Source: an uncultured Thermoanaerobaculia bacterium
Lineage (GTDB): Bacteria; Acidobacteriota; Thermoanaerobaculia; Thermoanaerobaculales; Sulfomarinibacteraceae
Direction of reading: 5' to 3'
Assembly: GCA_964552395.1 (NCBI GenBank)
Contig: CAZKGM010000003.1
Location: 50,030-114,029 of the forward strand
DNA length: 64,000 nt
Position 1 is the stretch's first letter, and each line of letters begins with the position of its first letter. Under the pieces are notes generated by a model, which saw only the letters and a list, made by a program, of their open reading frames with translations, made no database searches and was not told the origin of the DNA. The translations under genes and the position numbers were made by a program. This document shows positions 35,721-57,006 of the stretch, piece after piece.

Positions 35721-35740
35721 CTCGTGCCGCCTGCCGCGCT

Positions 35741-40589: not shown

Positions 40590-42173
40590 TCAGATCTTTG
40601 ACCAATAGCCTGAGAAGACTACTGTTGACAGGAAGTAGCCCAGAGGCACATTGACGAGCACCCCGGCCGTGAACGCCCAGAACGGCTTGAGGCCGAAGTT
40701 GGCGAGCTCGGCGAACCGCGTCGACAGCCCGATGCAAAGGAAGCAGAGCACGAAAGCCCACGACCGCAGCTTCTTCACCGGCGCGATGACCTTCGGGTTG
40801 AGCTCGCTCTCGAACCAATCGGACTTGTACCTCAGCTGGGTGAGCGCCCAGCGCTGACCCTCGCTGGTCGCAACGCCGCGAAGAACGTTGAACTCCTTCA
40901 GCGACATGTGACCCGCGAACGTGATCACGCCCTTCTCGGCCTGGTACTGGAACTTCCCGGCCAGTGACTCGGGCACAGCGTAGGTGGAGAAGTCGGCGCT
41001 GTACTTCGTCTTCCCGGCCTTCGACGAGAAGGTCCCGTCCACCTTGGCCGTCCCGATGTATCCGGGCGGCGGCGCCGCCGAGACCGCGCTCATGATGACC
41101 GAGGCCGCGAAGAACCCGAGAACGAACTTCGGGAACCTCTCCCAGATCACCCCCGCCCCGACGCTCGAGCGTGTTCCCTCCGTATTGCGCTCCCAGAACA
41201 TCACCGACACTACCGACAGGAGTAGGCACCAGATGCCGATCCAGATGTCGCGGCCGATGACCTTCATCAGCGTGAAGGTGTTGATCGGCGAGTCGCCGAA
41301 CTTGGTGGCGAGCTCGGCGACGACGGCGAACCCGGCCGCGTCCGCGAACTCGGACGTACCGATCCAGGCGCCCGCTTCACCGGGACTGATGGTGTGCGGA
41401 ACCATGGCCTTACAGACGAATGTCAGGGTGAAGATCATCACGATTGCCCAGATCGAGACGACGCCGATGCCGATTGCGATATGGTCCTTGTCGGCACGTA
41501 CTGAACCGCCGACGGCAATCGAGGCTGACACGCCGCAAACTGCCCCGCCGGCGCCGAGAACAGCGCCGAAGCGCGGATCCAGCTTGAACACCTTGGTCGC
41601 AACCAGGAAGATCACCAGCCACGTCGTGACCGCGACGATCGTCGCCTGGACGAAGGCGATCGGACCGGCCGAGAAGATCAGGGTCAGCGGCAGTGTGGCG
41701 CCGAGCAGGACGATACCGGTCTTGATGTAGTACTCGGTGCGCAACGAGGTCTTGAACCACTCGGGCACCTTGATGATGTTGCCGATGATAAGGCCGATGA
41801 TGAGCGCGAGCAGCGGCGCGCCGAGATCGTAGCGCTTCATCACCTCCCAGCCCGCGAGGTAGAAGACCACGAGCGAGCCGAGGAAGAGAATGATGTAGCC
41901 AGGAATGAACTCCGACAGTTTGCGGCCCATGATCTTCATCGAGATCGTGAACACGACCCCGAAGACGAGGAAGACCACCGCGACGCCACCAATGTGCTTG
42001 GAAAAGTCAGCGCCCAGCTGGGAGAGGTTGCCCCACGTCCCAGGAGTGACCGCCCAGCCCTTGATTGTCGCGCCGAAGGCATAGGTGATGAGCGCAAGCC
42101 CCATCAGGCCGAGGCCCAGCCACACCGCCCACCAGTCCTCCGTCTTCCAAAGCTTTTCCAACGCCTTTCCCAT
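40590..42173 (-). CDS. YeiH/PSE-family putative sulfur-oxyanion transporter
   Basis: EDWWAVWLG, EYYIKTGIVLLGA, GGAVCGVSA, WIGTSEFADAAG, KVIGRDIWIG, IGLSTRF. Stop lies 19 bp before the dsrA start. Confidence 0.88.
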   Translation of the reverse strand: MGKALEKLWKTEDWWAVWLGLGLMGLALITYAFGATIKGWAVTPGTWGNLSQLGADFSKHIGGVAVVFLVFGVVFTISMKIMGRKLSEFIPGYIILFLGSLVVFYLAGWEVMKRYDLGAPLLALIIGLIIGNIIKVPEWFKTSLRTEYYIKTGIVLLGATLPLTLIFSAGPIAFVQATIVAVTTWLVIFLVATKVFKLDPRFGAVLGAGGAVCGVSASIAVGGSVRADKDHIAIGIGVVSIWAIVMIFTLTFVCKAMVPHTISPGEAGAWIGTSEFADAAGFAVVAELATKFGDSPINTFTLMKVIGRDIWIGIWCLLLSVVSVMFWERNTEGTRSSVGAGVIWERFPKFVLGFFAASVIMSAVSAAPPPGYIGTAKVDGTFSSKAGKTKYSADFSTYAVPESLAGKFQYQAEKGVITFAGHMSLKEFNVLRGVATSEGQRWALTQLRYKSDWFESELNPKVIAPVKKLRSWAFVLCFLCIGLSTRFAELANFGLKPFWAFTAGVLVNVPLGYFLSTVVFSGYWSKI

Positions 42174-42224: not shown

Positions 42225-42240
42225 TGCAACCCATGTGCCA
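42225..42240 (-). promoter_or_regulatory. sigma54 promoter of the yeiH-dsrABD...dsrC operon
   Basis: Reverse complement TGGCAC-ATGGG-TTGCA, a perfect consensus; AT-rich tract at about 42265-42295. Confidence 0.88.
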
Positions 42241-42334
42241 GTCGGGCGTTCCCGCAACCGACATGGAAAAGCTTGAAGATGCAGTTATTTATGGAGCCAA
42301 GCCACGATGCTGGCTGCGCGACGCCAGCTGGCCC

Positions 42335-42350
42335 GTTACCTGAGCGTAAC
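42335..42350. promoter_or_regulatory. Palindrome GTTAC-N6-GTAAC (candidate enhancer site 1)
   Basis: GTTAC-CTGAGC-GTAAC. A one-mismatch copy GTAAC-CGTCGG-GTAAC lies at 42438-42453. Confidence 0.75.
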
Positions 42351-42690
42351 CTGCAGGCTCAATGCGCTGAAGGAAAGACACTTGACCGGACAGAGCCAGC
42401 CCGCACCGCCGTTGCCGAGCGAGGCACAAACCGACCCGTAACCGTCGGGTAACAGCCTCTGCCCCCATGAGTCTGGTTCCACAGCAATCTCGATCTGTGG
42501 GCGGACTGAACCTGATCCCGCGCAAGGCGCACCAATCCCGCCAGCTGGACGCCCCACGCGAACGATGACTGGGTTGGCTGGATTCGCTCGCGATGCGCGC
42601 AGCACATCCATGGGAGCGCTTGCCGAGTAGCCCTCCCTTGGCGCTCGAGCGGTGGCTCGACGCCTCTCAGGGGCTACGCGGTGCGCGGTC

Positions 42691-44304
42691 CTAGTGGAAC
42701 TCCCACTCCAGGAAACCCTCGGGGATGTCGCTCATCGCGTTCACGATCAGCTCCACCAGGCCCCCGTACAGGATGCCGCAGCGGTCCCAGGCATCGTAGT
42801 AGGTCAGGAGGTCCCTCATCTGGCCCTTGCAGTTGGAGCACGGCGCGCACACATACTTGTGCGTCTCCGGCTCGATGCAGTCGGCGAACGCCTCCAAGAT
42901 CTGAATGAACTTGACCCGGCCCGCGACCCGGGTTCGCCAGTCCGGGAAGTTGAGAGACTGGCAGACGGCGAAGCCCGACCCGCCGCCACAGCAGAAGTTG
43001 TCGACGCCGTGGGGCTCCATCTCGCGGAAACGGGGCGCGATCTTGGCGAGAATGTTGCGCTGGGGCTGGATGATGCCCATCGAGCGCGTGATGTTGCACG
43101 GGTCGTGCAGGGTGACCGGGAAGTCGTTCCGCGAGGGGTCGAGGGGCAGCCTGCCGCTCAGGACCAGGTCTTCGAGTGTGACCAGGCAGCTCTCGGTGCG
43201 CACCCGCAGCGGGTCCGGGATGAGGCGGTCGGCGGCCGCCATCGTGGCCTTGTGGGCGTGGCCGCACTCACCCATCATGATCTTCTTCACCCCGAGCTTC
43301 TTGGCCACCTCATAGTGCTTGAGCGCAATCCGCGAGAACTGGATGTCATCGTAGAAGAGGCCGTAGTTGACGGAGTCGTACCCCACGAGCTCCGACGACA
43401 GCGTCCATTTGATGCCTGCCGCCTCGAGGATGATCGCGAACGCCTGCAGGTTCTCCGGCCATGACAGGAACTCGCCCGCGTTGTGCAGCACCAGGTAGTC
43501 GGCGCCCTCGACATCGAAGGGGATCTTGATGTCGAGCTTGGTCTTCTCCGTAATATCTTCTTCGGCGAACTCCATGATGTCCATCAGGCCGGCCGGATTG
43601 AGGCCGGTGGAGGAGCCCACCGCCATCTGCTTGACCGTCCCCAGCTCGTGCAGCTCGGGCATGGCGATTCCCAGCTCCTGGCTGAACAGCTTCCTGATCT
43701 CCCGCGTGAGGAGGCCGTTGTCGATCCCGATCGGGCACTGCTGGGCGCAGCGGCGACACAGGGTGCAGCGGTATGACAGCTCGGCGAGCTTGACCAGCGT
43801 TTCCCAGTCGAGCTCGATGTCGTTGCCGCGCAGCTTCGGAAACAGGTTGCCGCCTGGCTTGATGTAGCGGTCGACGATCTTGCGCAGGATCTCGGCGCGG
43901 AACGTCGGACGATACATTTCCATGTGCCCGGACGCCGTGTAGATCGGGCACGCCTCGGCGCAGGTCTGGCACTTGACGCAGTTCTCCATGGACACGAGAA
44001 GCGGCTGCAGGAAGGTCCAGTTGTTCTCCTTGGTCAAGAGCTTGCGCAAGCCGCTGAGGAACCCGGCCACCAGGCGCTCCTTCTCCTCCTCGCTTTTCGG
44101 CACCGGGATCTGGGCGCCGCACACACCATCCGGACCGACCTCGATCCTCGTGCGCTGGTCCTCGGTGATCTCCTTGATCGGCTCATCCACCCAGTCCTCG
44201 TAAGGAGGAGGCAGCGGCAGCAGGCGGGCAGGGTCGACGTCCTCGTTCTCGGCGAGAAAACGGAGCAGGTCTCCCTGCGATGCGATCCTCGGCCTCTCCA
44301 TCAC
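42691..44304 (-). CDS. DsrK/HmcF-like FeS protein with CCG domain
   Basis: CVKCQTCAEACP, CTLCRRCAQQCP, GECGHA, HDPCN, CCGGGSG, CSNC. Confidence 0.88.
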   Translation of the reverse strand: MMERPRIASQGDLLRFLAENEDVDPARLLPLPPPYEDWVDEPIKEITEDQRTRIEVGPDGVCGAQIPVPKSEEEKERLVAGFLSGLRKLLTKENNWTFLQPLLVSMENCVKCQTCAEACPIYTASGHMEMYRPTFRAEILRKIVDRYIKPGGNLFPKLRGNDIELDWETLVKLAELSYRCTLCRRCAQQCPIGIDNGLLTREIRKLFSQELGIAMPELHELGTVKQMAVGSSTGLNPAGLMDIMEFAEEDITEKTKLDIKIPFDVEGADYLVLHNAGEFLSWPENLQAFAIILEAAGIKWTLSSELVGYDSVNYGLFYDDIQFSRIALKHYEVAKKLGVKKIMMGECGHAHKATMAAADRLIPDPLRVRTESCLVTLEDLVLSGRLPLDPSRNDFPVTLHDPCNITRSMGIIQPQRNILAKIAPRFREMEPHGVDNFCCGGGSGFAVCQSLNFPDWRTRVAGRVKFIQILEAFADCIEPETHKYVCAPCSNCKGQMRDLLTYYDAWDRCGILYGGLVELIVNAMSDIPEGFLEWEFH

Positions 44305-45194
44305 TTTCCCCCCTTCGTGTCGTGCTCTGGCACCTCGGTCACGACCTCGGCCCAGCTGCGGCCGGTCTGGATGTGCGGCGCCGACCAGTCCATCCCGTAC
44401 TGCAGCGCCGCCTCCAGACGAGATGAGAACGGGCCTCCGGCCACGTACGGCCGATCATCCCACCGCACCTTGTGGTAGGTAAAGTACTTGGCGAAGAAGT
44501 GCACCATCCGCGTGTAGGGCATGTAGAGAACGAACAACGCACCCAGCGCCATCTGGAGCCCGAGGAGCGGCGTGACATCGAGTGGCTTCAAGCGCAGCAC
44601 GGAGGCGACCGCTGCGCCCGCGCCCGCCAGCCCATCGGTGACCACCACGGCCGTGCTCGCCGCCCCGAACGCCAACAACAGCAGGAGGTTGAGGCGATCC
44701 AGCGGCGTCGTGTACGGCCTCAGCTTGGGGCTCGACGAGCGCTCGATCAGGAGCACGGTTGCGCCCACGAGCAGCAGGCCGCCGCCGAAGCCGGCCAGCC
44801 ACGGGAGCACGATGCTCAGGATCGCCGGCGACCAGCCCAGCCCCTGTACGACGAGGCCCACCGTGGTGACGACGAGGAGGTAGAGCCCCCAGTGGAACGG
44901 CATCGATCCCCACCACAGGCTGCGGTTGTTCTTCCACACGCCCTTCAGCAGGACGATCTCCTCACCCATGGCGCTCACCTCTCCGACCAGGCTCGTCCGC
45001 CGCTTGTGGGTCCACCAGTCCTTTTCCTCGAGGTAGGAGCCGCCGTGATCCCGGCGCGGCTCGTGTGCCACGGGGTACAGATCCCACCTCAGATGCATCG
45101 GCGTCAGCGCATAGTGAAGCCCCTTCATGACACATCCCGCGATGAACCCGATAACTGCCACCCAGACCCACGCCAGCAAGCCGATCCCCGCCAT
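44301..45194 (-). CDS. DsrM/NarI-like membrane cytochrome b
   Basis: RWDLYPV, FHWG, PYTRMVHFF, about 5-6 TM; translationally coupled to the DsrK-like gene. Confidence 0.82.
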   Translation of the reverse strand: MAGIGLLAWVWVAVIGFIAGCVMKGLHYALTPMHLRWDLYPVAHEPRRDHGGSYLEEKDWWTHKRRTSLVGEVSAMGEEIVLLKGVWKNNRSLWWGSMPFHWGLYLLVVTTVGLVVQGLGWSPAILSIVLPWLAGFGGGLLLVGATVLLIERSSSPKLRPYTTPLDRLNLLLLLAFGAASTAVVVTDGLAGAGAAVASVLRLKPLDVTPLLGLQMALGALFVLYMPYTRMVHFFAKYFTYHKVRWDDRPYVAGGPFSSRLEAALQYGMDWSAPHIQTGRSWAEVVTEVPEHDTKGGK

Positions 45195-45240
45195 GAAACC
45201 TCCCCGGCCCGGCACCCGGCCGGACACCGCCGTTCGACCG

Positions 45241-45256
45241 AGCAAGTATCGTGCCG
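45241..45256 (-). promoter_or_regulatory. sigma54 promoter of the dsrM/K-like pair
   Basis: Reverse complement CGGCAC-GATAC-TTGCT. Confidence 0.82.
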
Positions 45257-45393
45257 TCTCAGCATCGGCACCACTCGGCGGCTGCGGCGAACCAGAGTGC
45301 ACGCAAGTGGCGCGGCACCCAGCCGTTGCCGACCGCTCGTCGCGCCTTCACGATCCAGCGCCTCGCCTGCAGACCGCCGCCGCCGGGCAAGCA

Positions 45394-45409
45394 GTTACGG
45401 AAAGGTAAC
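45394..45409. promoter_or_regulatory. Palindrome GTTAC-N6-GTAAC (candidate enhancer site 2)
   Basis: GTTAC-GGAAAG-GTAAC, 138 bp upstream of the -24 element. Confidence 0.75.
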
Positions 45410-45436
45410 GTGCCCCGGGCCCGGACCTTCATGCGC

Positions 45437-45478
45437 GATCCCAGCGAGACCGGCGAGACTTCTGTCAGCGCTGGGATC
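45437..45478. terminator. Hairpin downstream of the TVP38 gene
   Basis: GATCCCAGCG...CGCTGGGATC inverted repeat; no clear U-tract. Confidence 0.35.
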
Positions 45479-45595
45479 TGAGCGTCGAGCTGCCGCAGGC
45501 ATACTTGACGGTATGTTGAGGACAGCGAGGCGTGAAGGGCACCGCGATGGCTGGCGTATCGCCGGCCGCGGTAGATCGCGAGTGAATGATCTGGG

Positions 45596-46348
45596 CTATG
45601 AGCCCTGTATCAGGTCGTCCTTGGCATAGCGTTTCTTCACCCAGCTCGGGATGAGCGACAGCAGGACGAAGAAGATGGCTGCTATCGCCAGGTAGACAAT
45701 GGTCTTCTTCACAGCTTCCGGCTGCCCTCCGGAGAGGATCACCTCACGCGCCGAGCCGGCGGCGAAGTTGAAGGCGATGGTCGCCGGGATCATGCAGGGA
45801 AAGGTCACGAGAATGTAGGTCCGCAGCGGGATATCGGTCAGGCCGTAGACGTAGTTCTGGACATTGAACGGAAAGAGCGGCACCAGGCGGGTGATCATCA
45901 GCATCCGCCACCCCTGCTTGCGGACGCCGTCGTCGATCTTCTTGAGGGCCCGGTTCTTTTCGACCCACCCGGCGACCATGTCGCGGGCCGCGTAGCGGCC
46001 GATGAGGAAGGCCAGCACGGCCCCCAGGTTGGCGCCCACCGTGGTCCACACCGACCCCCACACCGCACCGAAGATGAGGCCGCTAACGATGGACATCGGC
46101 AGACCCGGCAGCAGCAGAACGCAGGCGATGATCCAGATCGCGATCAGCGCCGCCGGCGCCCACGGTCCCATACCGTGGAAGAACGCATCGAGCCTCAAGA
46201 CGCGGTCCTTGAGCGTCCCTCCCTTGAGCATGTCGAAGACGCCGAAGTGGTTGGCAATGAGGATCAGCGCCGCGATCGCGGCCAGCACCACTACCAGCTT
46301 GATCCAGGGCCTGCCGCCGCCGGCCTTGTCCTCGCGTTCTCCGCTCAT
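45596..46348 (-). CDS. TVP38/TMEM64 (DedA superfamily) membrane protein
   Basis: LPGLPMSIVSGLIFG, FLIGRY, RLVPLFPFNVQNYVYGLT. Confidence 0.9.
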   Translation of the reverse strand: MSGEREDKAGGGRPWIKLVVVLAAIAALILIANHFGVFDMLKGGTLKDRVLRLDAFFHGMGPWAPAALIAIWIIACVLLLPGLPMSIVSGLIFGAVWGSVWTTVGANLGAVLAFLIGRYAARDMVAGWVEKNRALKKIDDGVRKQGWRMLMITRLVPLFPFNVQNYVYGLTDIPLRTYILVTFPCMIPATIAFNFAAGSAREVILSGGQPEAVKKTIVYLAIAAIFFVLLSLIPSWVKKRYAKDDLIQGS

Positions 46349-46491
46349 GGTCTGTACTCCTTCCCAATGGTAGGCCCTCAAGCTGCGCCCGAAGGCCCAC
46401 CCGGATCACCCGCGGACGTTAGCCGGACACCGAGGAACGAAGCGGGCCGGGAATGACCCCGGCCCGCCTTCCCTCGAAATCGCGAGCCGGT

Positions 46492-47463
46492 CTACTTGCA
46501 GTCGTCGCACACGATGTTGTTCGGATAAGCCTTGTTGTAGTAGCTCCACTCGATCCACGAGCCATCGTAGTTGTGAAGATGGGAGATATCCCATCCCATG
46601 AGGTAGAGCGAGAAGATCTCGGTCGTCGTGCGGACGCCCGACTGGCAGTAGAAAATCTGGTGCTTGTTCTTGTCCATGCCGATTGCATCGATGAGCTTCT
46701 GGGTGGCGGCGGCGTCCTTCCAGGCGGTCGCCTCCCCACCCTCGGCCACCGGCTGCTTGAACGCCGGCCAGTTCTGATGCTTGGCCCACGGAATGCGGCC
46801 CTTGGCGTAGGCGCCCTTCTTGAGCTGCTCGCCGCTCCACTCCTTGCCGCCGCGCGTATCCCACAGCTGGTACTCCGGCGAGGTCTTGACCCGCCAGATC
46901 TCCGACAGCCCGACGGTCCACCCGGGCAGCTCATCGGCTGCGACAAAGGTCCCCTCCTTGGCCGGCCTGGCCGGCAGGTGATCGACATCGTAGCCGGCCG
47001 CCTTCCACGCCTGGAAGCCGCCGTCGAGGACCCGGCAGTCCGTCTTGCCGTACAGGTAGAACATCCACCATACCCGTGTCGAGTCGTACTTGTGATCGTA
47101 GATGACGACCTTCGAGTCGTTGTCGATCCCGAGCTCGCGTGCGAACGCCTGGAAGGCGTCGCGGTCGAGGGCCATCCCCTCGTACGGGAACTCCACGCCT
47201 TCCTTGGGCTCGTAGTCGCCCCGCCAGATGTGCAGTGCACCCGGGACATGGCCAAGGCCGTAGTCGGTGAGCTTGGCAACCGCCAGGACCACCAGCTTGG
47301 GGTCCTTGGCATCCATCATCGACTTCAGCTCCTGGGCCGTGATCAAGGCTTGACCGCGCTCGAAACCCTTGTAGTTGTCTCCCGCGAGGAGCGGCGCCGC
47401 GGCACCTATGACGAGGGCCAGGATCACGACGATCGGCCACCTGCAGAATCGTTGCTGGGACAT
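46492..47463 (-). CDS. Exported tandem-domain rhodanese/sulfurtransferase
   Basis: Sec signal peptide, GHVPGA, VLDGG, DTRG..E, GRIPWA, active-site FYCQSGVRT, YDGSWIEW. Confidence 0.92.
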   Translation of the reverse strand: MSQQRFCRWPIVVILALVIGAAAPLLAGDNYKGFERGQALITAQELKSMMDAKDPKLVVLAVAKLTDYGLGHVPGALHIWRGDYEPKEGVEFPYEGMALDRDAFQAFARELGIDNDSKVVIYDHKYDSTRVWWMFYLYGKTDCRVLDGGFQAWKAAGYDVDHLPARPAKEGTFVAADELPGWTVGLSEIWRVKTSPEYQLWDTRGGKEWSGEQLKKGAYAKGRIPWAKHQNWPAFKQPVAEGGEATAWKDAAATQKLIDAIGMDKNKHQIFYCQSGVRTTTEIFSLYLMGWDISHLHNYDGSWIEWSYYNKAYPNNIVCDDCK

Positions 47464-47517
47464 GTCTCTCCTCCTTTGCATTCACGTTCAGACAGCCACT
47501 ACGGCCGGAACATCTAG

Positions 47518-47533
47518 TGCAAGCTGCGTTCCA
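47518..47533 (-). promoter_or_regulatory. sigma54 promoter of rhodanese-TVP38
   Basis: Reverse complement TGGAAC-GCAGC-TTGCA; AT-rich tract at about 47540-47572. Confidence 0.8.
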
Positions 47534-47587
47534 CCACCGATATTGTGCTAACCTATTGTTGATGAAGTAATTGAGCGGTGACAGGAG

Positions 47588-49045
47588 CTATTCCGAGGCC
47601 GTGCCCGCAGGTGCCGTGTGGGGCCGGTAACCGTCTTCGTTACCCTGCTGTAACAGCCGCCTCGCCTCGGGTGGAGTGTAGTGGAGGGGGAGCTCGACGG
47701 CAAAGGTGCTGCCCGCCCCCTCCTCACTGCTGACGGCCACACCACCGCCGTGCGCCTCGAAGACCTCTCGCACAATCGCGAGACCGAGCCCCGTCCCCTC
47801 CGGCGCGTGACGCTTTGCGTTCGGCGCGCGAACGAACTCGAGCAGGACTTGATCGCGGAACGCCGCCGGAATTCCGATGCCGCGATCGAGCACCTGAACC
47901 GTCACGGCGGTGTCGTTGACGCGCAGGCGAACCGTCACGGCGCCTCCCCGATACGAGTACTTGATTGCGTTTTGGACCAGGTTCTCGAAGGCATGGACCA
48001 GATCGGGGGGAATCCCCCAGTCGAGGATGGCCACACCGTCGAAGTCCGGGACCAGCTCGATATTCCGCTCCGCGGCCAGCGGCTCCAAGGCATCCATGAT
48101 GTCGGCCAACAGCTGGTTGACGTTGATAGCCCGGCTCCACGGGGCCCGACCCCGGCCCTCCCGAATCTTGGCCAGCTCGAGCAGGTCGTTGACGATCGCC
48201 AGCAGGCCGTCGACCCGCTCGATCGCACCGGCGAGCAGGCGGCGCCCGCGTTCGGAGGCAGGGTCGACGTAGCCCTTCGCCAGCACAGACAGCGTCGTCT
48301 GGACGGTTCCCAACGGCGACCGGAGCTGGTGGGCCGAGATCCGCATGTAGTGCGACTTGCGTTGCTCGAGCTCGGCGATCTCATCGAGCAGGCACTGCAG
48401 CTCGGTCGTGCGCTCCTGCAGCTTGCCGGTGGTCCTGTAGAGCTCGATGTTGCGCTTCTTGAAGCGGCTGGTCACCGAGTCCGTGAGGTAGACGATGCCG
48501 AAGAGGGCGACCGTGAGAGCCACGAGGTTGAGGTCACAGGCACGGCCGCACATGCCGCGAGTAGGATCGACGGGATGGACGGCGAGTAGCCCCTTGCCCT
48601 CCGCCATGTACAGCCCGAGAAGACCGACAGACGTTGCTGCGGCCAGGACATACATGATTCGGGTCGCGATCATGATGGTCCCGATCGCCATGTGAAATGC
48701 GAACACCGGGAGCAACGGGCTCTGCAAGCCTCCGCTGAAGTGAACGGTCACGACCAGCGACAGGAGGTCCATGACCATCTGCCGGATGGCGCAGCTGCGG
48801 AGGTTCCCGTAAGGTTGGCCGTGCTCCTCCGCAATGCGAAACACATTGAAGAAGATCAAGTTGTAGGCGGCCACGAAGAGGGCCACCAGGAACAGGCTCG
48901 GCCATACCGACTGCATGCCGATGCGCGGGCCCACAAGCGACGCCGCCACCAGCCCCGCGACCGCCAGCCAGCGGAGCTTGATGAACCACTGCAGACGTTC
49001 CCGTAGCTCCGGGGCGAAGATGAAGGCGAACCGGGACTCGGCCAA
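47588..49045 (-). CDS. Membrane sensor histidine kinase
   Basis: About 6 N-terminal TM; H-box SAHQLRSPL; NLVQNAIKY, DRGIG, GTGLGL, GAGSTF. Confidence 0.92.
   Translation of the reverse strand: MAESRFAFIFAPELRERLQWFIKLRWLAVAGLVAASLVGPRIGMQSVWPSLFLVALFVAAYNLIFFNVFRIAEEHGQPYGNLRSCAIRQMVMDLLSLVVTVHFSGGLQSPLLPVFAFHMAIGTIMIATRIMYVLAAATSVGLLGLYMAEGKGLLAVHPVDPTRGMCGRACDLNLVALTVALFGIVYLTDSVTSRFKKRNIELYRTTGKLQERTTELQCLLDEIAELEQRKSHYMRISAHQLRSPLGTVQTTLSVLAKGYVDPASERGRRLLAGAIERVDGLLAIVNDLLELAKIREGRGRAPWSRAINVNQLLADIMDALEPLAAERNIELVPDFDGVAILDWGIPPDLVHAFENLVQNAIKYSYRGGAVTVRLRVNDTAVTVQVLDRGIGIPAAFRDQVLLEFVRAPNAKRHAPEGTGLGLAIVREVFEAHGGGVAVSSEEGAGSTFAVELPLHYTPPEARRLLQQGNEDGYRPHTAPAGTASE
47639..47654. promoter_or_regulatory. 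Palindrome GTTAC-N6-GTAAC (candidate enhancer site 3, inside the 3' end of the kinase gene)
   Basis: GTTAC-CCTGCT-GTAAC, 106 bp upstream of the -24 element. Confidence 0.72.
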
Positions 49046-49048
49046 GCA

Positions 49049-49432
49049 CTACTCCCCGATCAGCTCCGCAACGTGGGCCAGGAGCTCCTCGGGGGAGACG
49101 GGCTTCTCAAGGTAGCGGTCGCACGGCACCCACGACTCGTCGACCTCCATCCTCACGTTGTAGACCTGGTCCACACCGGTGAGCATGATGATCGGGATGG
49201 CGGCGGTCGCCGGATCCGTGCGCAACGTGCGCGCCACGTCGAAGCCTTCCGAGAGGTGGTCCATCATCACGTCGAGAACGATCAGATCCGGCGCTGCCTC
49301 GTGGACCCGAGCCAACCCCTCCGTTCCGTTGCCCGCTGTCGAGATGCGGTAGCGGGTTTCCAGTACCGCTGACACCGCGTCCACGAAAACCTCGTCGTCG
49401 TCGATCAGGAGGACTGTCTTCCTCTCGTCCAT
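49049..49432 (-). CDS. Stand-alone response regulator receiver
   Basis: LLIDDD, LDVMM, IIMLT, YLEKP; no output domain. Confidence 0.9.
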   Translation of the reverse strand: MDERKTVLLIDDDEVFVDAVSAVLETRYRISTAGNGTEGLARVHEAAPDLIVLDVMMDHLSEGFDVARTLRTDPATAAIPIIMLTGVDQVYNVRMEVDESWVPCDRYLEKPVSPEELLAHVAELIGE

Positions 49433-49440
49433 GGGACCTC

Positions 49441-51351
49441 CTAGTGTCCGACCAGCGCCCCTGTTGGACATGCGGTGAGGCATGAGCCACAGTGGATGCA
49501 CAGCTCCTGGTTCACGGAGTGCACATGCTTGATCGTACCCGAGATGGCATCCGATGGACAGGCCTTGGCGCACAGTCCGCAGCCGTTGCACAGCTCCTCA
49601 CTGATCGAGTATGTCAGCAACGCCTTGCACTGGCCCGCGGGACAACGACGATCGACTACGTGGGCCTCGTACTCCTCGCGGAAGTGGCGCAACGTCGACA
49701 GGACGGGGTTCGGCCCGGTTTGTCCGAGGCCGCAGAGCGCGGTTCCCTTGATGTGAGCGGCCATCGACTCCAGGAGATCGAGATCCTCGAGCCGTCCCCG
49801 GCCGGCGGTGATCTCCTCCAGAGTATTCAGCATCACCCTGGTGCCGATGCGACAGGGAGGACACTTACCGCATGACTCGTCGACCACGAACTCGAGGAAG
49901 AAGCGCGCCAGCTCCACCATGCAGGTGGAGGAATCCATGACGATGAGGCCCCCCGAGCCCATGATGGCACCCAGCTCCTGCAGCGACTCGTAGTCGATCG
50001 GGGTATCGGCGGCCGACGCCGGTATGCAGCCCCCGGATGGACCGCCCGACTGCGCCGCCTTGAACGGTAGCCCCGAGCGCATCCCGCCGCCGATCTCCTC
50101 CACCACCTCAGCCAGCGAGACACCCATCGGCACCTCGACCAGCCCGGTGTTGCGAACCGCCCCCGCAAGGGCGAACACCTTGGTTCCCTTGCTTCGCTGG
50201 GTGCCGATGCCGGCGTACCAGTCGGCGCCTCGGAGCAGAATCGGAGGCACGTTGGCCCATGTCTCGACGTTGTTGAGCAAGGTCGGCCGGTTCCACAGCC
50301 CACACTGAGCGGGGAACGGCGGCCGCGGTCGCGGTGTACCACGCTGTCCTTCGATCGACCGCATGAGGGCCGTTTCCTCGCCGCACACGAAGGCTCCGGC
50401 CCCGATCCGAATCTCGACCTCGAAGGTGTGCCCGGAGCCCAGGATATCGGGCCCCAGCAGGCCGCAGCGCCACGCGTTCTCGATCGCGCCCTCGAGTCGT
50501 TCGATCGCGAGAGGGTACTCGGCCCTGACATAGATGTAGCCCTGACGCGAGCCGATGACACGGCCCGCTATCGTCATCGCCTCGATGACGGAGAGCGGGT
50601 CTCCCTCGAGGATGCTGCGGTCCATGAACGCGCCGGGATCGCCCTCGTCGGCGTTGCAGACCACGTACTTGACGTCGCCGGCCGCCTCACGAACGAACTG
50701 CCACTTGAGGCCGGCAGGAAAACCGGCGCCGCCGCGGCCGCGCAGGCCGCTTCGCTTGAGAGCGTCGAGCACCTCGGTCGCTTCGAGGTCGAACAGGACC
50801 TTCTCGAGAGCCCTGTAGCCATCGGCTGCCACGTACTCCTCGAGGCTCGCGGGATCGATCACGCCGCAGTTGCGCAGCGCGATCTTCTGCTGCCGCGCGA
50901 AGAACGGTACCTCTCTGCTGTGCAAGAGCTTGCCCTCGGGCGTCTCCCAGGCAAGCTCGAGATCGGCCACAGGGGTGTTGCCGGCCAGATGCTCGGAGAC
51001 GACGCGCTGCACCTTTTCTGGATCGAGCATCGGGTAATACACACCGTCCGGCACCACAAGGGCCAGGGGGCCGGCGTCGCACAGCCCCATGCAACCCACC
51101 TCGACCACTCTCACGGCATCCTGGAGCCCTGCGCCGGCAACCTCGTCGCGCAGGGCCTGCGCGACAGAGTCGGCATGGCAAGAAACACAAGCTCCACCAG
51201 CGCACACCAGCACCTCGCGCCGGACCGGAGTCTCTCCACGACGGCTCTCGAGCCGCGTCGCGAGCTGCGTCGACAGGGCGCTGCGAATGGCCGCCAGGTC
51301 CGTCCTCGTGAGCGGGTTGGGGATCGCCGAGTCAGGCAGGTTCGTCGCCAC
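49441..51351 (-). CDS. HydB/NuoF-like NAD(H)/FMN subunit with N-terminal [2Fe-2S] and C-terminal 2x[4Fe-4S]
   Basis: CAGGAC...CMGLC, LRGRGGAGFP, CNADEGDPGAFMDR, CGEETAL, SCGKCPPCRIG, CNGCGLCAKACP. Confidence 0.92.
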   Translation of the reverse strand: MATNLPDSAIPNPLTRTDLAAIRSALSTQLATRLESRRGETPVRREVLVCAGGACVSCHADSVAQALRDEVAGAGLQDAVRVVEVGCMGLCDAGPLALVVPDGVYYPMLDPEKVQRVVSEHLAGNTPVADLELAWETPEGKLLHSREVPFFARQQKIALRNCGVIDPASLEEYVAADGYRALEKVLFDLEATEVLDALKRSGLRGRGGAGFPAGLKWQFVREAAGDVKYVVCNADEGDPGAFMDRSILEGDPLSVIEAMTIAGRVIGSRQGYIYVRAEYPLAIERLEGAIENAWRCGLLGPDILGSGHTFEVEIRIGAGAFVCGEETALMRSIEGQRGTPRPRPPFPAQCGLWNRPTLLNNVETWANVPPILLRGADWYAGIGTQRSKGTKVFALAGAVRNTGLVEVPMGVSLAEVVEEIGGGMRSGLPFKAAQSGGPSGGCIPASAADTPIDYESLQELGAIMGSGGLIVMDSSTCMVELARFFLEFVVDESCGKCPPCRIGTRVMLNTLEEITAGRGRLEDLDLLESMAAHIKGTALCGLGQTGPNPVLSTLRHFREEYEAHVVDRRCPAGQCKALLTYSISEELCNGCGLCAKACPSDAISGTIKHVHSVNQELCIHCGSCLTACPTGALVGH

Positions 51352-51949
51352 TGGCCTCCTCCTCCGCTGACGCGGCGCTCTCTCGCCGCGCCCGTGCCCG
51401 CAACTTCCGAACCAGCTTCCGCACCTCGGTGGCAGTCAGGTGACCGTGCACCTCATCGTTCACCATCATGGCCGGAGCGAGGCCGCAGGCACCGATGCAG
51501 CGCACCTGCTCGAGACTGAAGAGTCGGTCCTCAGTGACATCACCAATCCCGATCGCGAGCAGGCTCTCGATCGCCTCCAGCACGCGCTGTCCCTGCCGAA
51601 CGAAGCAAGCGGTTCCCATACACACCTTGAGCTGATACCGACCGCGGGGGTTGGTGGTAAAGAAGTGGTAGAAGCTGACCACGCCGTAGACCTCGATCGG
51701 CGACAGAGCGAGCTGCTGGGCGACGTACTCCTGGACCGGAAACGGAAGGTAGCCGATCTCCTCCTGCACCCTGTGCAACAGCGGAATCAGCCGCTCCCGT
51801 CCGCCGGGGTGCGCGGCAACCCACTGGTCGATCAGGTCCCACACCTCCGGACGGATCTCGTCGGCCGGAAGCGGTTCCTGGGTCCCGAAGAAGCCCGGCA
51901 ACTCGCCCGTTGTGCGCTGCCGCTCTTCCACCCCCGTACGCTCGCTCAT
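51332..51949 (-). CDS. HydC/NuoE-like [2Fe-2S] subunit
   Basis: VVSFYHFF, VCMGTAC, RCIGACGLAP. Confidence 0.92.
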   Translation of the reverse strand: MSERTGVEERQRTTGELPGFFGTQEPLPADEIRPEVWDLIDQWVAAHPGGRERLIPLLHRVQEEIGYLPFPVQEYVAQQLALSPIEVYGVVSFYHFFTTNPRGRYQLKVCMGTACFVRQGQRVLEAIESLLAIGIGDVTEDRLFSLEQVRCIGACGLAPAMMVNDEVHGHLTATEVRKLVRKLRARARRESAASAEEEASGDEPA

Positions 51950-54474
51950 TTCGACCTCCGGACCTCAACTGCCGTCGGCTCGGCCCCGTTCTCCATCAGC
52001 CGCGCAGCCGCATCCTCGCTGCCGTACCACTGCGCCACCGGCCTCCCCGGCCTCACCCGGCGGTCAAGCCGGGCGCGAAGCAGAATCTCCCTGCCGCCCG
52101 CCCTGACGCACACGCGCTCGCCGTTGCGGACACCGACGGCCTCGGCGTCGGACGGGGCGAGGTGGAGGGCGACAGTCGGCGCCAGCTCCTGGAGAGTCGC
52201 GCTGAAGCTGGTCACCAGCCCGCTGTGGAACAGACGGGGCGAGGCGTCGAGCAGCATCCCGCTCGGCTTCCTGCTTCCTATCGGCGGCGGCGCGGCGGCA
52301 AGACTCACCGTGGGCCGCTGAGCCGCTCCGGCCAGGGCTGCTGCGATCTCCTCGTCGAGGAGCAGCTTCGACGGCAGCTCCACGCCCAGCCGCCGCGCAA
52401 CCTCCACGATCAAGCGGCCATCCTGGGGAAGGCCCGCCGGAGCCTGCACGACTCCGGCAAGGCGCCGCCGCTGTCCGTCGGCGGCGACCACGGACCCTTC
52501 CCGCTCGCCCAGGATCGCTACCGGCAGCACGACGTCGGCAAGGCGGGCGGACTCGGTGAGGAACGTGTCCTGCACCACCACGAACTCCGCGCTCCGCACC
52601 ATGGCACGCCCGGCCAGGCGTCTGGGCCAGGAGCCCACCGGGTCCTCGCCAACGAGGTAGAGCAGCCCTACCTCCCCCGTCGCCGCGTGCTCGCTAGCTT
52701 CAGCAAGGGACCATCCCGGGGCTGCAGGCACCGGTACGCCCCATGCCGCCTCGAGCCCAGCTGTCGCCTCGCAGTCGCCAACACGCTTGCCGCCCGGCAG
52801 CAGTCGAGGATGGAGACCAACGTCGAGCACGCCCTGCACGTTTGCCTTTTCGCCCAGGACCATCACCTTCGGTTCGGCTCCATCCCCGCCGCCGAGAAGC
52901 GACATCAGCTCGACTGCGGCACGTGTCACCTCGGCCTCGTCGCCCGGGATGCCGAGCCCGGTCAGCACCACGGCGACTGGTGCGGTCGCCGCAAGCAGGC
53001 GCTCGGCAAGCTCCTCGAGCCGTTCCGGCGCCACCCCGGTGATCTCCGAGGCCGTCACCGGTGTGTAGGCACCGAGGCTGGTGAGCCAGTCCGAGAGCCC
53101 GGCGGCCCCTTGGTCCCTGGCTATCCCGGAGCGCTCCGCCACCCGTGCGGCCACCGCCCGTACCAGGACCTCCTCTGTTCCGAGAGCCGGCGAAAGGTGC
53201 ATGGCGGCGTGTCGCTCCAGTCCGCCCGAGAGACCATGCACGAGGATGAAGTCCCGTCCCCGTTGCCGGGCCCCCTGTACGAGCTCGGTCTTCACGAGCG
53301 GGTGGGTCCGGGTGGGGTCCGCCCGCAGCACGAGGACCAGGTCCGCGGCCCACAGGTCCTCGAACGTGGCCGTCGACCGCGCCGCGCCTGTGCGCTGGCC
53401 CATCCCGTCGACCAGTGCCTCGACACCGCCCACAGGTCCGACTCCGACATGCGGTGAGCCGAGGCCGCCGCGCACCAGCCGCTGCAGGAGATAGGCGTCC
53501 TCGCAGGTGAGGCGGGAGCTTCCGACCGCGACCACAGCCTTCTTCGACCGGCGAGTCTCGGCGGCAATACGCTCGACCTCGGCCAGCGCTTCGGCCCAGC
53601 TGGCGTCGACCAGGCGCCCGCCGCGCCGCACCAGCGGCACCGACAGCCGCTGCGGGCTGGTGAGAACGTCCCAGCCGAGCCAACCCTTGGCGCAAAGCTT
53701 GCCGCGGTTGGGCGCCGTGTCCGGGTCCGCCGTGACCCGCTGCAGGGCCCCGCCGTGCGTCTCAACCGTCACCTGACAGCCGCAGCTGCACAGGGAGCAG
53801 GTCGTCACAGCCCTTTGCCGGAGCCACGCCGGTACGTCCGAGTGGTAGGGCCTGGCGGAGAGCGCTCCCACCGGACAGGAGTTGACACACTGGCCGCAGA
53901 ACTCGCAGTCCAGCGGTCGCTCGAGAAACGTGGTGACCCGTGCATCGAGGCCGCGGTTGACAATGCCGATCTCCGCCACCCCCTGTACCTCGTCGCACAG
54001 GCGAACGCAACGGCCGCACAGGATGCACTTCTCTGCGTCGCGGACGATGACCGGCGAACGGTCGTCGAGCGGCACCTGCCGGCGCTCGAACGGCAACAGG
54101 GCATCGGCAACTCCGTGGTCGAAGACCAAGTCCTGGAGACGGCAGTCGCCACTCTTTTCGCACACCGGACACTCCATCCGATGATCGAGCACGATCAGCT
54201 GCAGCTGCCGCCGTCTTGCCTCGATCACCTGCGGCGTGTCGGTCTCGACAATCATGCCCCGCTGCACCGGGGTCGAGCACGCCGGCACCAGGCCGCCGCG
54301 CCCGTCCCGCCGCTCTACCAGACACAGACGACAGCCTCCGTAGGGGGTCAGGCGATCGTCGTGGCACAGCGTGGGTACGGAGATCCCGAGCCCCCGCAGG
54401 ACCTCGAGGACCGAGGCGCCGGAGCTGGCCTCGAGCTGCTCACCGTTGACCGTGATCGGCACGCTCGCCGTCAT
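51946..54474 (-). CDS. NuoG/FdhA-like FeS relay subunit with molybdopterin-fold C-terminus lacking a catalytic ligand
   Basis: CH...CRLC...C [2Fe-2S], HRMECPVC...C, 2x CxxCxxCxxxC, CSLCSCGC...LCAKG. No C/U-H motif in the Mo-ligand region. Confidence 0.85.
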   Translation of the reverse strand: MTASVPITVNGEQLEASSGASVLEVLRGLGISVPTLCHDDRLTPYGGCRLCLVERRDGRGGLVPACSTPVQRGMIVETDTPQVIEARRRQLQLIVLDHRMECPVCEKSGDCRLQDLVFDHGVADALLPFERRQVPLDDRSPVIVRDAEKCILCGRCVRLCDEVQGVAEIGIVNRGLDARVTTFLERPLDCEFCGQCVNSCPVGALSARPYHSDVPAWLRQRAVTTCSLCSCGCQVTVETHGGALQRVTADPDTAPNRGKLCAKGWLGWDVLTSPQRLSVPLVRRGGRLVDASWAEALAEVERIAAETRRSKKAVVAVGSSRLTCEDAYLLQRLVRGGLGSPHVGVGPVGGVEALVDGMGQRTGAARSTATFEDLWAADLVLVLRADPTRTHPLVKTELVQGARQRGRDFILVHGLSGGLERHAAMHLSPALGTEEVLVRAVAARVAERSGIARDQGAAGLSDWLTSLGAYTPVTASEITGVAPERLEELAERLLAATAPVAVVLTGLGIPGDEAEVTRAAVELMSLLGGGDGAEPKVMVLGEKANVQGVLDVGLHPRLLPGGKRVGDCEATAGLEAAWGVPVPAAPGWSLAEASEHAATGEVGLLYLVGEDPVGSWPRRLAGRAMVRSAEFVVVQDTFLTESARLADVVLPVAILGEREGSVVAADGQRRRLAGVVQAPAGLPQDGRLIVEVARRLGVELPSKLLLDEEIAAALAGAAQRPTVSLAAAPPPIGSRKPSGMLLDASPRLFHSGLVTSFSATLQELAPTVALHLAPSDAEAVGVRNGERVCVRAGGREILLRARLDRRVRPGRPVAQWYGSEDAAARLMENGAEPTAVEVRRSK

Positions 54475-54485
54475 CTTCAAACCCC

Positions 54486-56612
54486 TCACTCGACCCCCAG
54501 CGGTCGCAGTCTCTTGAACGCCCACTTCGTCCGCAACCGGTTCCCGTAGCGGGCGATGCTCCCCGGCGGTTTGGCGGACGCCTTCGACCTCCAGTCCTTC
54601 TCGAACAGGAAGTCCAGAATGTGGATCGCCGGCTTGCCGGTGCCGGCGATCGCCATCCGACAGCCGGCGCAGTAGGTCACCTGAGGCAGCGCGGACTCCG
54701 CCGCCCGCCGCCGGCTCACGGCCTGCGAGAGCTCCGGATCCACCGGGTAGATCATGCCTCCGAAGCCGCAGCAGCGGGCCAGCTCACCGTTGTACTCGAT
54801 GTCGTCGACCCCGCCGCCGCCCGCCTCGATCAGAGTACGGACCGCTTGGTGAAGATCCGGCTCGTGGCGCGCCTTGCACGAGTCGTGGACCGAGACGACT
54901 TCTCCCTCCCGTCTCCGCGGCGGCTCCCACCTCCCGGCCAGCAGCTCCCACACCGTCGTCACCGCGAGCTCGGGAAAGCTCTCCTTCAAGGTATGGGCGC
55001 AGTCGGGGCAGGCGGCGACCAGCTCTTCCGCACCGACCTTCTCGGCCGCCTCCAGGATCCCTCGCCGCGTCTGTTCAAACTCCTCCTCCATCCCGAGCAG
55101 CTCCACCGGCGCGCCGCAGCAGTACATGAGAACGCCCGTTCCGGGGTAGCTCCGCCGCAGCTCGTCATACATGGTGATCGTGTGGCGCGGCGCGACCGCC
55201 GGCAGGGCGCAGCCGGTGAAGAACAGCCGCTTCGCCCGTCTCCTGCCCGGCTCGGCCATTGCCAGCGTGAACATCGAGCCGACTCCGGCCTTCCAGTAGC
55301 TCACGATCCCCTTGTGCACGGGCAGCGGGCCGACACCCTCCTCGACCGCTCGGCGCCGCGCCTCAATCAGTAGCCGCCCGGTGTCGAGGTCCTCCGGGCA
55401 CACTGCGGCGCACAGGGAACAGACGTTACAGGAGTACGCCATCTTCACCGTCTCGGGCACCTCGAGACCGGCCATGATGCGTCGTGCGATGTCCTTCGGC
55501 GAGCTGCAGTACTTGGCGAGGAATTCGCAGTCCTTGACGCACAGACCACACTCGCAATCAAGGCACCGGGCGGCTTCCTCGAGGGCCTCCTCCTCAGTCA
55601 GCGGCGGGTTGGCAGGGACCAGCATCATCGGGGTCCGCTCGCGCCTCTTGCGCTCCTCCTCGGTGACCTCCAACGTCCACAGCAGGCGATCCGGTAGCAG
55701 CTGCTCGCGATCGGCCCTGAGGTCTCGGCCGCTCAGAAAGCGGTCCACAGACTCCGCCGCCCGGCGCCCCAGCGCCAGCGAGTAGATCACCGTCGCGGGC
55801 CCGCTGACGGCGTCGCCGCCGGCGAAAACACCCGCCATTGGGGTCTCACAGGTCAGGGGGTCCACAGCCAGGAGCCCACGCGGGGTGGTGCCTTCGGCGC
55901 CCCGGCGCATCATCACGCACGCCCCGGCAAAACCCACCAGCAGCAGCACCGCGGCATAGTCACGGCGCAGCTCATCGAGGGTGATGTCGCGCCCGACCTC
56001 GACCCCGGTGCGCACCTCGATGCCGAGCGCGGCGACGACCGACAGGTCGCGCTCCACGACGCTTCTCGGCAGGCGCCAGGCCGGGATCTTGGCAACCAGG
56101 CAGCCGCCGATCTCCTGCTCTCGCTCGAAGACCGTGACCCCGAACCCCTTCCTGCGCAGGTCATACGCTGCCAGCAGGCCCGCCGGGCCGGCGCCCACGA
56201 CCGCCACCCGCTGCCCACGGTCCGGCTCGCAGTCGATCACGTGCTGCGGCTCCCCCGTCTCCCACTCGGCCAGGAACCTCTTGATATCGCGGACACGGAC
56301 CGCTTCGTCCTCGTCAATCCGCTTGCAGTGCAGCTCGCACGGATGGGCGCAGACATACCCCAGAACCCCGGGAAACGGCAGGCGCTCCCGCACCAGCTGC
56401 AGGGCCTCGCGGAACCGACCCTCACGGGTCAGCTGGACGTAGCCCCGAGCATCCACGTGCAGCGGGCAACGTCCGACGCAGTTGGCGGGCCCCTCGCCGC
56501 GACACCGCTCGAGCAGATCGCTCGCCAGCCACTCCAGGCTCCCGACATCGTGCCTGGTACCACCGACAACCCCGAGGGCCGATCCTTCCAGACGGTCCGC
56601 TGGTTCTGCCAT
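54486..56612 (-). CDS. GltD-like FAD/FeS oxidoreductase fused to 2x[4Fe-4S] and two CCG domains
   Basis: CVGRCP and GYVCAHPCE, VGAGPAG, FAGGD, CLDCECGLCVKDC, CNVCSLCAAVCP, FTGC/CCG/CPDC and HDSC/CCGFGG/YCAGC. Confidence 0.88.
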   Translation of the reverse strand: MAEPADRLEGSALGVVGGTRHDVGSLEWLASDLLERCRGEGPANCVGRCPLHVDARGYVQLTREGRFREALQLVRERLPFPGVLGYVCAHPCELHCKRIDEDEAVRVRDIKRFLAEWETGEPQHVIDCEPDRGQRVAVVGAGPAGLLAAYDLRRKGFGVTVFEREQEIGGCLVAKIPAWRLPRSVVERDLSVVAALGIEVRTGVEVGRDITLDELRRDYAAVLLLVGFAGACVMMRRGAEGTTPRGLLAVDPLTCETPMAGVFAGGDAVSGPATVIYSLALGRRAAESVDRFLSGRDLRADREQLLPDRLLWTLEVTEEERKRRERTPMMLVPANPPLTEEEALEEAARCLDCECGLCVKDCEFLAKYCSSPKDIARRIMAGLEVPETVKMAYSCNVCSLCAAVCPEDLDTGRLLIEARRRAVEEGVGPLPVHKGIVSYWKAGVGSMFTLAMAEPGRRRAKRLFFTGCALPAVAPRHTITMYDELRRSYPGTGVLMYCCGAPVELLGMEEEFEQTRRGILEAAEKVGAEELVAACPDCAHTLKESFPELAVTTVWELLAGRWEPPRRREGEVVSVHDSCKARHEPDLHQAVRTLIEAGGGGVDDIEYNGELARCCGFGGMIYPVDPELSQAVSRRRAAESALPQVTYCAGCRMAIAGTGKPAIHILDFLFEKDWRSKASAKPPGSIARYGNRLRTKWAFKRLRPLGVE

Positions 56613-56709
56613 ACGCTACCTCCGCCTTGCCGCCGGCCGGAGATCGCTCGCCCACGACCCTCGGCGGGCCTCACGCGCCTCTCCGAACCGTTCCGATCCT
56701 CGCCGACCG

Positions 56710-56967
56710 TCACCGATTCGTAACATCATCGGCCACCCGTTCGAAACGTGCGGGTCGGAGCTCGAACTCTCTGCAGGCCACCTCCGGATCCTGAAAGGTG
56801 TTCCGCACCGCGCAGATGCCCGCGCGCCCGCGCGTCGAGCCATAGGACGACGACAGCACGAGGATGCCGGGGAAGCTCCTCTCGAGAGCCGCCGGATCGT
56901 CCTGGAAGTACCTGCACTCAGCACAGGTTCGGCTCTCCTCGACAGCTGAAGGGTGATCTCTGATCAT
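56710..56967 (-). CDS. Small 4-Cys protein (C-X2-C-X33-C-X12-C-X2-F)
   Basis: 85 aa ORF directly after a sigma54 motif, on the same strand as the cluster. Confidence 0.65.
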   Translation of the reverse strand: MIRDHPSAVEESRTCAECRYFQDDPAALERSFPGILVLSSSYGSTRGRAGICAVRNTFQDPEVACREFELRPARFERVADDVTNR

Positions 56968-56990
56968 GCTGCACCACCACCGCCGGGTCA

Positions 56991-57006
56991 TGCAATTGGT
57001 ATGCCC
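56991..57006 (-). promoter_or_regulatory. sigma54 promoter of the flavo-FeS/CCG unit
   Basis: Reverse complement GGGCAT-ACCAA-TTGCA keeps the GG-N10-GC spacing. Confidence 0.7.

Follow-up and report, generated by a model that had tools for sequence, protein, structure and literature searches.

The DNA analyzed here, referred to as the window, is a 64,000-nt stretch from an uncultured Thermoanaerobaculia bacterium of the Sulfomarinibacteraceae (contig CAZKGM010000003.1, positions 50,030-114,029, assembly GCA_964552395.1). It harbors a 25-kb dsr supercluster, in which four motifs resembling the -24/-12 promoters of sigma-54 (P1-P4) precede yeiH-dsrAB, dsrMK, a rhodanese-DedA pair and an electron-input operon. 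From 29 to 63 kb almost all genes are on the minus strand, and transcription runs from high to low coordinates, so that the units follow one another in the order P4, P3, P2, P1 (Table 1). Pfam and NCBIfam assignments on the window proteins agree with the gene labels of an earlier note on this DNA. Naming failed for p154 and the small open reading frame (ORF) at the start of the P4 operon, which have no Pfam, NCBIfam or PDB match; nor did these databases return a match confirming p85, which occupies the position of dsrD, as DsrD. Rfam and tRNA scans of the window gave no matches. The results make it quite likely that the four sigma-54 promoters, together with a bacterial enhancer-binding protein (bEBP) bound to a shared dyad, control the supercluster.

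Table 1. Promoter motifs, dyads, hairpins and genes of the window (UAS, upstream activating sequence; RR, response regulator; HK, histidine kinase)
Feature	Coordinates	Strand	Remarks
P1	42225-42240	-	TGGCACATGGGTTGCA; 0 mismatches to TGGCAC-N5-TTGCW; candidate promoter of yeiH-dsrA-dsrB-p85
P2	45241-45256	-	CGGCACGATACTTGCT; 1 mismatch; candidate promoter of dsrM-dsrK (M2K2-like)
P3	47518-47533	-	TGGAACGCAGCTTGCA; 1 mismatch; candidate promoter of rhodanese-DedA
P4	56991-57006	-	GGGCATACCAATTGCA; 2 mismatches; small-ORF/flavo-FeS/FdhA-like/NuoE/NuoF/RR/HK operon
UAS1a	42335-42350	none	GTTAC-N6-GTAAC; 110 nt (start to start) 5' of P1
UAS1b	42438-42453	none	one-mismatch copy; 213 nt 5' of P1; equal spacing in L001
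UAS2	45394-45409	none	palindrome; 153 nt 5' of P2
UAS3	47639-47654	none	palindrome; 121 nt 5' of P3; within 3' end of HK gene
P4-unit dyad	56709-56724	none	GTTAC-N6-GTGAC, a one-mismatch copy; 282 nt 3' of P4; overlies small-ORF stop, before flavo-FeS start
AT-rich patch	42261-42290	-	separates UAS1a from P1; possible bending or IHF-type site
YeiH-family transporter	40590-42173	-	527 aa; PF03601 (Pfam)
dsrA	39378-40571	-	NIR_SIR / NIR_SIR_ferr domains
dsrB	38285-39361	-	NIR_SIR / NIR_SIR_ferr domains
p85	38027-38275	-	82 aa; DsrD position; conserved in relatives
Hairpin 3' of p85	37986-38015	-	13 bp, almost all GC, then TTTGATCT; directly 3' of p85; -37 kcal/mol, z = -4.4
p154, dsrL, dsrN, TPR protein, dsrC	32916-37960	-	distal P1-unit genes, in this order
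dsrL	35741-37480	-	within p154-dsrC stretch
dsrN	34320-35801	-	within p154-dsrC stretch
dsrC	32916-33230	-	87% identical to L002 DsrC
dsrC terminator	32826-32850	-	11-bp hairpin 3' of dsrC
dsrM-like	44301-45194	-	Pfam/NCBIfam
dsrK-like	42691-44304	-	Pfam/NCBIfam
Tandem rhodanese	46492-47463	-	Pfam/NCBIfam
DedA/VTT membrane protein	45596-46381	-	Pfam/NCBIfam
Small 4-Cys ORF	56710-56967	-	85 aa; first P4 gene
Flavo-FeS protein	54486-56612	-	NF045663; Fer4_20, FAD and CCG domains
FdhA/NuoG-like molybdopterin protein	51946-54474	-	Pfam/NCBIfam
NuoE-like	51332-51949	-	Pfam/NCBIfam
NuoF-like	49441-51351	-	Pfam/NCBIfam
Receiver-only RR	49049-49432	-	near end of P4 operon
PilS-like 6TM HK	47588-49045	-	last gene of P4 operon
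P5	12785-12800	-	TGGCACTCCTCTTGCT; 0 mismatches; fifth sigma-54 motif, absent from the earlier note
BNR/Sortilin-repeat protein	9093-12761	-	1222 aa; starts 24 nt after P5
TPR-Ser/Thr kinase	12942-15383	-	directly upstream of P5; bEBP gene lies 5' of it
bEBP	15510-16931	-	only one in window; N-terminal sensory domain, AAA+ with intact GAFTGA loop, Fis-like C-terminus

The four motifs are intergenic and lie on the minus strand where the earlier note had placed them. The ATG start codons that follow P1-P4 (42173, 45194, 47463 and 56967), each with a Shine-Dalgarno-like run, are 52, 47, 55 and 24 nt from the last motif base, so the orientation and the range of 24-55 bp that had been reported hold. 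P4 leaves a leader of only about 13 nt, and this short gap is kept in two related loci (L081 and L092); the first P4 gene is also called as 85 aa, equivalent to the start at 56967, on near-identical JGI contigs. The significance of the motifs was assessed by comparing match counts with expectation and with 100 shuffles of the window. The loose pattern GG-N8-TTGCW, close to the form in which the motif was originally described, is at chance level (15 matches versus 12.4 expected; 33 of 100 shuffles reach 15), as is the full consensus with up to two mismatches (22 versus 23.1). The full consensus is enriched at one mismatch or fewer (4 versus 1.38 expected, a count reached by 1 of 100 shuffles) and at zero mismatches (2 versus 0.08, reached by none). 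Taken by themselves, these counts make P1-P3 suggestive but give no support to P4, which is rescued through its conservation in L081, L082/83, L087 and L092. One further match to the loose pattern (GG-N8-TTGCT, 32820-32834) was rejected as a promoter, since it belongs to the dsrC terminator hairpin.

Conservation in related genomes, a check that the earlier note had proposed, provides the decisive evidence for the motifs. A search with YeiH yielded 80 loci from GTDB genomes, and a search with the flavo-FeS protein yielded 12 metagenome loci covering the P4 region. The closest loci of the YeiH set are from metagenome-assembled genomes (MAGs) of Acidobacteriota/Vicinamibacterales, with L001 93% identical, and synteny is good along the whole supercluster. 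In L001-L030, 31 of the 33 motifs with at most one mismatch are on the coding strand, and the motifs sit directly 5' of yeiH, of dsrM or a DsrK-like unit, of the rhodanese gene, or of a fifth unit after dsrC. P1 is kept at this stringency in all 13 acidobacterial yeiH-dsrAB loci (L001-L010, L014, L022 and the window; YeiH 66-93% identical), and it is absent at this stringency from eight yeiH loci without dsrAB (L011-L013, L015-L019; YeiH 62-68% identical). P2 is conserved before dsrM or the DsrK-like unit in L001, L002, L003, L004 and L022, with a degenerate -12 element in the L010 copy, and P3 is conserved in L001, L002, L004, L008, L022 and L087. P4 recurs in L081, L082/83 and L087 with the sequence GGGCAC-N5-(A/C)TTGCA and in L092 with CGGCAT-N5-ATTGCA; the window, L081 and L092 share the gap of 23-24 nt to the ATG and its Shine-Dalgarno-like GGTGGTG run. 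Anchored alignments show the motif retained while the flanks have diverged to near-randomness, and the GG, TT and GC positions are invariant across 37 promoter motifs paired with the palindrome described below. All four sites appear as a clear phylogenetic footprint, and their retention at orthologous positions amid diverged flanks supports the reading of the motifs as sigma-54 promoters.

A second element accompanies the motifs. The window contains exactly three copies of a 16-bp palindrome, GTTAC-N6-GTAAC, versus 0.02 expected; none of 100 shuffles reaches this count, and the palindrome recurs at matching places in related loci. The perfect copies are UAS1a, UAS2 and UAS3; UAS1b is a one-mismatch copy, and the 450-nt gap before P1 holds both UAS1 copies. 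The spacing between UAS1a and P1 is 109-111 nt in L001, L002, L003, L004, L005, L006, L008, L010, L014 and L022. The window and related loci combined (742 kb) contain 48 dyads with at most one mismatch; 36 of these are followed by a coding-strand sigma-54 motif at a distance of 75-220 nt, and the commonest spacing is 110 nt. The dyad is 78-170 nt upstream at P1, P2, P3 and the dsrT promoters. Between dyad and promoter the DNA is AT-rich: positions -50 to -21 from the motif average 47-55% AT across 32 orthologous promoters, versus about 30% in the flanks. The combination of dyad UAS, AT-rich spacer and -24/-12 promoter matches the textbook architecture of bEBP-activated transcription.

It is proposed that the supercluster is transcribed from four co-directional sigma-54 promoters. 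At P1, P2 and P3, an NtrC-family enhancer-binding protein would bind the dyad, which starts about 110-150 nt 5' of the -24 element, and the AT-rich patch would aid bending of the intervening DNA. The ATPase of the activator would remodel the closed E-sigma54 complex, such that transcription is off unless the activator is on. P4 would drive the electron-input operon, whose last two genes encode a receiver-only response regulator and a membrane-bound histidine kinase, a pair that may provide signal input or positive feedback. The order NuoF-RR-HK-rhodanese is kept in L001, L002, L004, L008 and L087; L081 has NuoF-RR-HK and its locus ends inside HK.

P4 departs from this arrangement. Its dyad, mostly with a GTGAC half-site, is always located between P4 and the flavo-FeS ATG in the six loci where it was found (the window, L081, L082, L084, L087 and L092), 30-100 nt before that ATG; counted from the -24 motif, it is at +93 to +283 nt. 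The activator on this downstream dyad would presumably loop from downstream or modulate elongation, and the dyad may act as an enhancer placed downstream or as a control point of the roadblock type. A second sigma-54 promoter 3' of the dyad was sought and none was found; the candidate TGGCAGAACCAGCGGA has no -12 element.

Transcription from sigma-54 promoters strictly requires an activator. The gap between yeiH and dsrA is 18 nt, which leaves no room for a promoter of dsrAB's own, so that dsrAB relies on P1 or on transcripts reading through from sigma-54 promoters further upstream. Both points favor the earlier suggestion that dsrAB is under a bEBP switch; the facultative sulfur respirer of the earlier note would be an ecological conjecture. 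The hairpin directly after p85 is likely a terminator or attenuator between yeiH-dsrAB-p85 and p154-dsrL-dsrN-TPR-dsrC, a stretch that has no sigma-54 motif of its own. A long, structured hairpin also lies directly 3' of the dsrK stop (42617-42686, minus strand; z = -3.2 for a 141-nt segment).

The activator itself is probably not encoded beside the supercluster. The only bEBP of the window is 25 kb from the dsr cluster and was rejected as the dsr activator: it adjoins P5, whose upstream region has a GATACCC-N4-GGGTATC hairpin and no GTTAC dyad, and it therefore probably serves P5. This bEBP, with its GAFTGA loop, and the perfect P5 provide good, if indirect, evidence for use of sigma-54 by the genome. 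The response regulator of the P4 operon has no AAA+ or DNA-binding domain and would thus at most feed an unlinked bEBP. Probably, one unlinked and as yet hypothetical protein acts as the activator that switches the whole sulfur-respiration pathway on.

Several observations weigh against this model. With the AAA+ domain of the window bEBP as tblastn query, the ±10 kb around yeiH gave no bEBP match in any of the acidobacterial loci; among L001-L092, matches occur only in the non-acidobacterial L015, L024, L026, L040, L046, L061 and L064. Likewise, rpoN was not seen in the 64-kb window. The zone 75-220 nt upstream of motifs makes up 1.8% of the 742 kb, and the resulting binomial probability for the dyads, about 8e-53, is overstated owing to shared ancestry, as orthologous loci are not statistically independent. 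The strict IHF consensus WATCAR-N4-TTR is present in only 1 of the 32 spacers. A shared dyad-symmetric site lies 110, 153 and 121 nt 5' of P1, P2 and P3, but a single geometry does not extend to every promoter: alignment of the P4 upstream regions revealed no conserved block or UAS, P4 has no upstream dyad, and the location of its dyad downstream of the promoter (+282 in the window, +93 in L082) is unusual. Finally, no convincing terminator was found after HK (a 54-nt gap) or after DedA, leaving units 4/3 and 3/2 unseparated. Read-through is therefore likely and the units may overlap as transcripts; a picture of nested transcripts, reinforced from promoters inside them, suits the units better than one of insulated operons. 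The co-regulation proposed in the earlier note is supported for P1-P3 by the palindrome that they share at conserved spacing; the P4 copy has one mismatch and lies downstream of its promoter.

These points bear on the alternatives to different degrees. That GC-rich DNA has produced the motifs by chance, with ordinary sigma-70-type promoters driving the cluster, is scarcely credible: all four motifs are conserved at orthologous positions amid diverging flanks, their core positions do not vary in 37 promoters, and they are coupled to the dyad at fixed spacing. Such a reading can draw on the chance-level counts of the loose pattern and of the two-mismatch consensus, and on the two mismatches in P4. 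Against it, a scan of the interval from 32 to 48 kb turned up no sigma-70-like site, although at 65% GC such a scan is a weak test. It is also quite unlikely that the sigma-54 promoters are real and the dyad binds a regulator of another kind (a dimeric repressor, for instance, or a co-activator that responds to redox or sulfur state), with bEBPs binding elsewhere or acting from solution. For a repressor one would expect overlap with the -24/-12 region, whereas the dyads of P1-P3 and dsrT, with their upstream position, sharp 110-nt mode and AT-rich patch, have canonical bEBP geometry. The position of the P4 dyad between the promoter and the first large gene does fit a roadblock or repressor better than an enhancer, and the tblastn search, which returned no cognate bEBP at acidobacterial loci, is in keeping with this alternative.

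P4 also gives grounds for supposing that the four promoters answer to different bEBPs, with P4 separate from the dsr promoters and the cluster not one regulon. The missing upstream dyad, a -24 half that reads GGGCA(T/C) rather than TGGCAC, and the differing sequence (the GTGAC half-site) and position of its dyad would all be accounted for. Nevertheless, this seems rather unlikely, as P4 has the 16-bp element of the dsr promoters and keeps it in six loci, and GTGAC half-sites are also found at P1, P2 and P3 in some relatives. Moreover, in L086 two dyads lie between the aprBA promoter and the divergent promoter of a porin-small-ORF-flavo-FeS unit, the counterpart of the P4 operon. Control by four sigma-54 promoters and a dyad-bound bEBP remains the preferred reading.

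Dyad-promoter pairs extend beyond the units of the window. A further pair is present after dsrC and before dsrT-dsrM-dsrK in L002, L003, L004, L006, L010, L014 and L022; the window and L001 have no dsrT-dsrM-dsrK after dsrC, and trkA/trkH are there instead. In L086 (1077-5606), divergent perfect sigma-54 promoters (3585, minus strand; 4159, plus strand) flank two one-mismatch dyads (3750 and 3767); one promoter faces aprB-aprA and the other a Porin_O_P gene, after which come the small ORF and the flavo-FeS gene. In L020, an unclassified MAG, two dyads and a sigma-54-like motif (TGGCCTGATCCTTGCT) are located between yeiH and dsrA (12153-12348), not 5' of yeiH. The dyad is absent from the other sampled phyla and from more distant Acidobacteriota (L027, L029, L030), and it appears to mark a lineage-specific sulfite/sulfate-respiration regulon of Vicinamibacteria-like Acidobacteriota. 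A broader proposal, which is possible but tentative, is that a single unlinked bEBP binding GTTAC-N6-GTAAC could be the master switch for the entire dissimilatory sulfite/sulfate reduction pathway, with yeiH-dsrAB, dsrMK, dsrTMKJOP, aprBA, rhodanese/DedA and the NADH/formate-linked flavo-FeS module as targets. The electron-input operon, with its downstream enhancer and co-transcribed histidine kinase and receiver, would then form a positive-feedback loop, and the switch would be the basis of a toggle between oxygen and sulfur respiration.

Well-known sigma-54 promoters of the NtrC/NifA type include glnAp2 and nifH, the latter with the UAS TGT-N10-ACA plus IHF. Common to that type and the promoters described here are GG and GC 10 nt apart, TGGCAC-N5-TTGCW, a dyad UAS about 100-150 bp 5', an AT-rich spacer and activator dependence. 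The differences are the UAS GTTAC-N6-GTAAC, the dissimilatory sulfite/sulfate-reduction targets, the unlinked, hypothetical activator and the downstream site at P4. FisR, described as a sulfide/persulfide-responsive sigma-54 activator of sqr-pdo-tauE in Cupriavidus and Acinetobacter, is the nearest functional analogue, as it joins sigma-54 and a bEBP on sulfur genes that include a putative sulfite/sulfate-family exporter (PMC7315123, citing Li et al. 2017). Compared by description only, the FisR gene is divergent beside a single target operon for sulfide detoxification/oxidation, whereas the present case is a multi-operon dsr/apr regulon with no adjacent bEBP. The dyad itself is reminiscent of the sites of CbrB, an NtrC-family bEBP acting upstream of sigma-54 promoters, in its GTTAC/GTAAC half-sites and their inverted orientation, a likeness that serves as a lead only. 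CbrB sites have a longer spacer than the N6 dyad. The half-sites in Pseudomonas are TGTTAC / GTAACA, their F1/R1/R2 subsites are arranged unlike the N6 dyad, and CbrAB, which functions in carbon catabolite regulation, is described as exclusive to pseudomonads (PMC6296734). TyrR and GcsR boxes were rejected as matches to the dyad because their half-sites have the opposite orientation.

Sigma-54 has been mapped in a sulfate reducer. Desulfovibrio vulgaris Hildenborough has many bEBPs and mapped sigma-54 promoters, and the paper on its regulome makes no mention of dsr, sulfite reductase or rhodanese, which leaves control of the core dsr genes outside the regulome as described (PMC4641369). A 2025 cross-phylum survey of sigma-54 regulons mentions neither Acidobacteria nor dsr (PMC12316311). 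The gene content of the supercluster resembles that of dsr clusters from the same phylum, with dsrAB, dsrC, dsrL, dsrN, dsrM2K2 and a gene in the dsrD position (PMC6018796, PMC8528874, PMC10564751, PMC10591310); sigma factors and promoters are not mentioned in those four papers. The literature yielded no earlier account of acidobacterial dsr under sigma-54 control, and the regulon appears to be undescribed so far, although the kind of regulation, sigma-54 plus an enhancer-binding protein, is well known.

The regulon bears on how uncultured, metabolically flexible carriers of dsrAB decide on sulfur respiration; the acidobacterial dsr papers cited above do not deal with transcriptional control. 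It predicts a default off state for the dsr, apr and electron-input genes and their joint activation, and it would link the YeiH-family transporter, the rhodanese/DedA pair and the flavo-FeS/FdhA/NuoEF module functionally to DsrAB. The promoter and enhancer signature could serve as a sequence tag for regulon members and for the regulator in complete MAGs, and it is amenable to heterologous reporter and gel-shift experiments without culturing.

A few minor observations concern neighboring genes. The window encodes a 1091-aa fusion of an NrfD-type membrane subunit and a multihaem cytochrome c (3464-7736, minus strand) that adjoins a Fer4_11 (DsrO-like) protein. The fusion resembles a DsrOP/J-like quinone module, is about 26 kb from the dsr cluster, and has no sigma-54 motif or dyad seen near it. 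In L005 (~4300-4543), L007 (~6850-7059) and L009 (~6400-6609), a gene ending in YYDNLEEKVEVKLHGAATGDAAKK* directly precedes dsrMK; its end seems to resemble the C-terminus of a sulfate adenylyltransferase (Sat). A hairpin follows this gene in all three loci, and no sigma-54 motif lies before dsrM there. The acidobacterial YeiH-family protein carries an insertion of ~90 residues (residues ~365-455 of the window protein) relative to homologues from other phyla, at which the tblastn alignments split (q365/q455). The small 85-aa P4 protein, with cysteines in the pattern CxxC...C...C and no family match, has homologues encoded directly 3' of yeiH in deltaproteobacterial loci (L011 11620-11805, L015 11614-11805, L026 11604-11828, L034 11449-11613), which hints that it may be functionally linked to the YeiH-type transporter.

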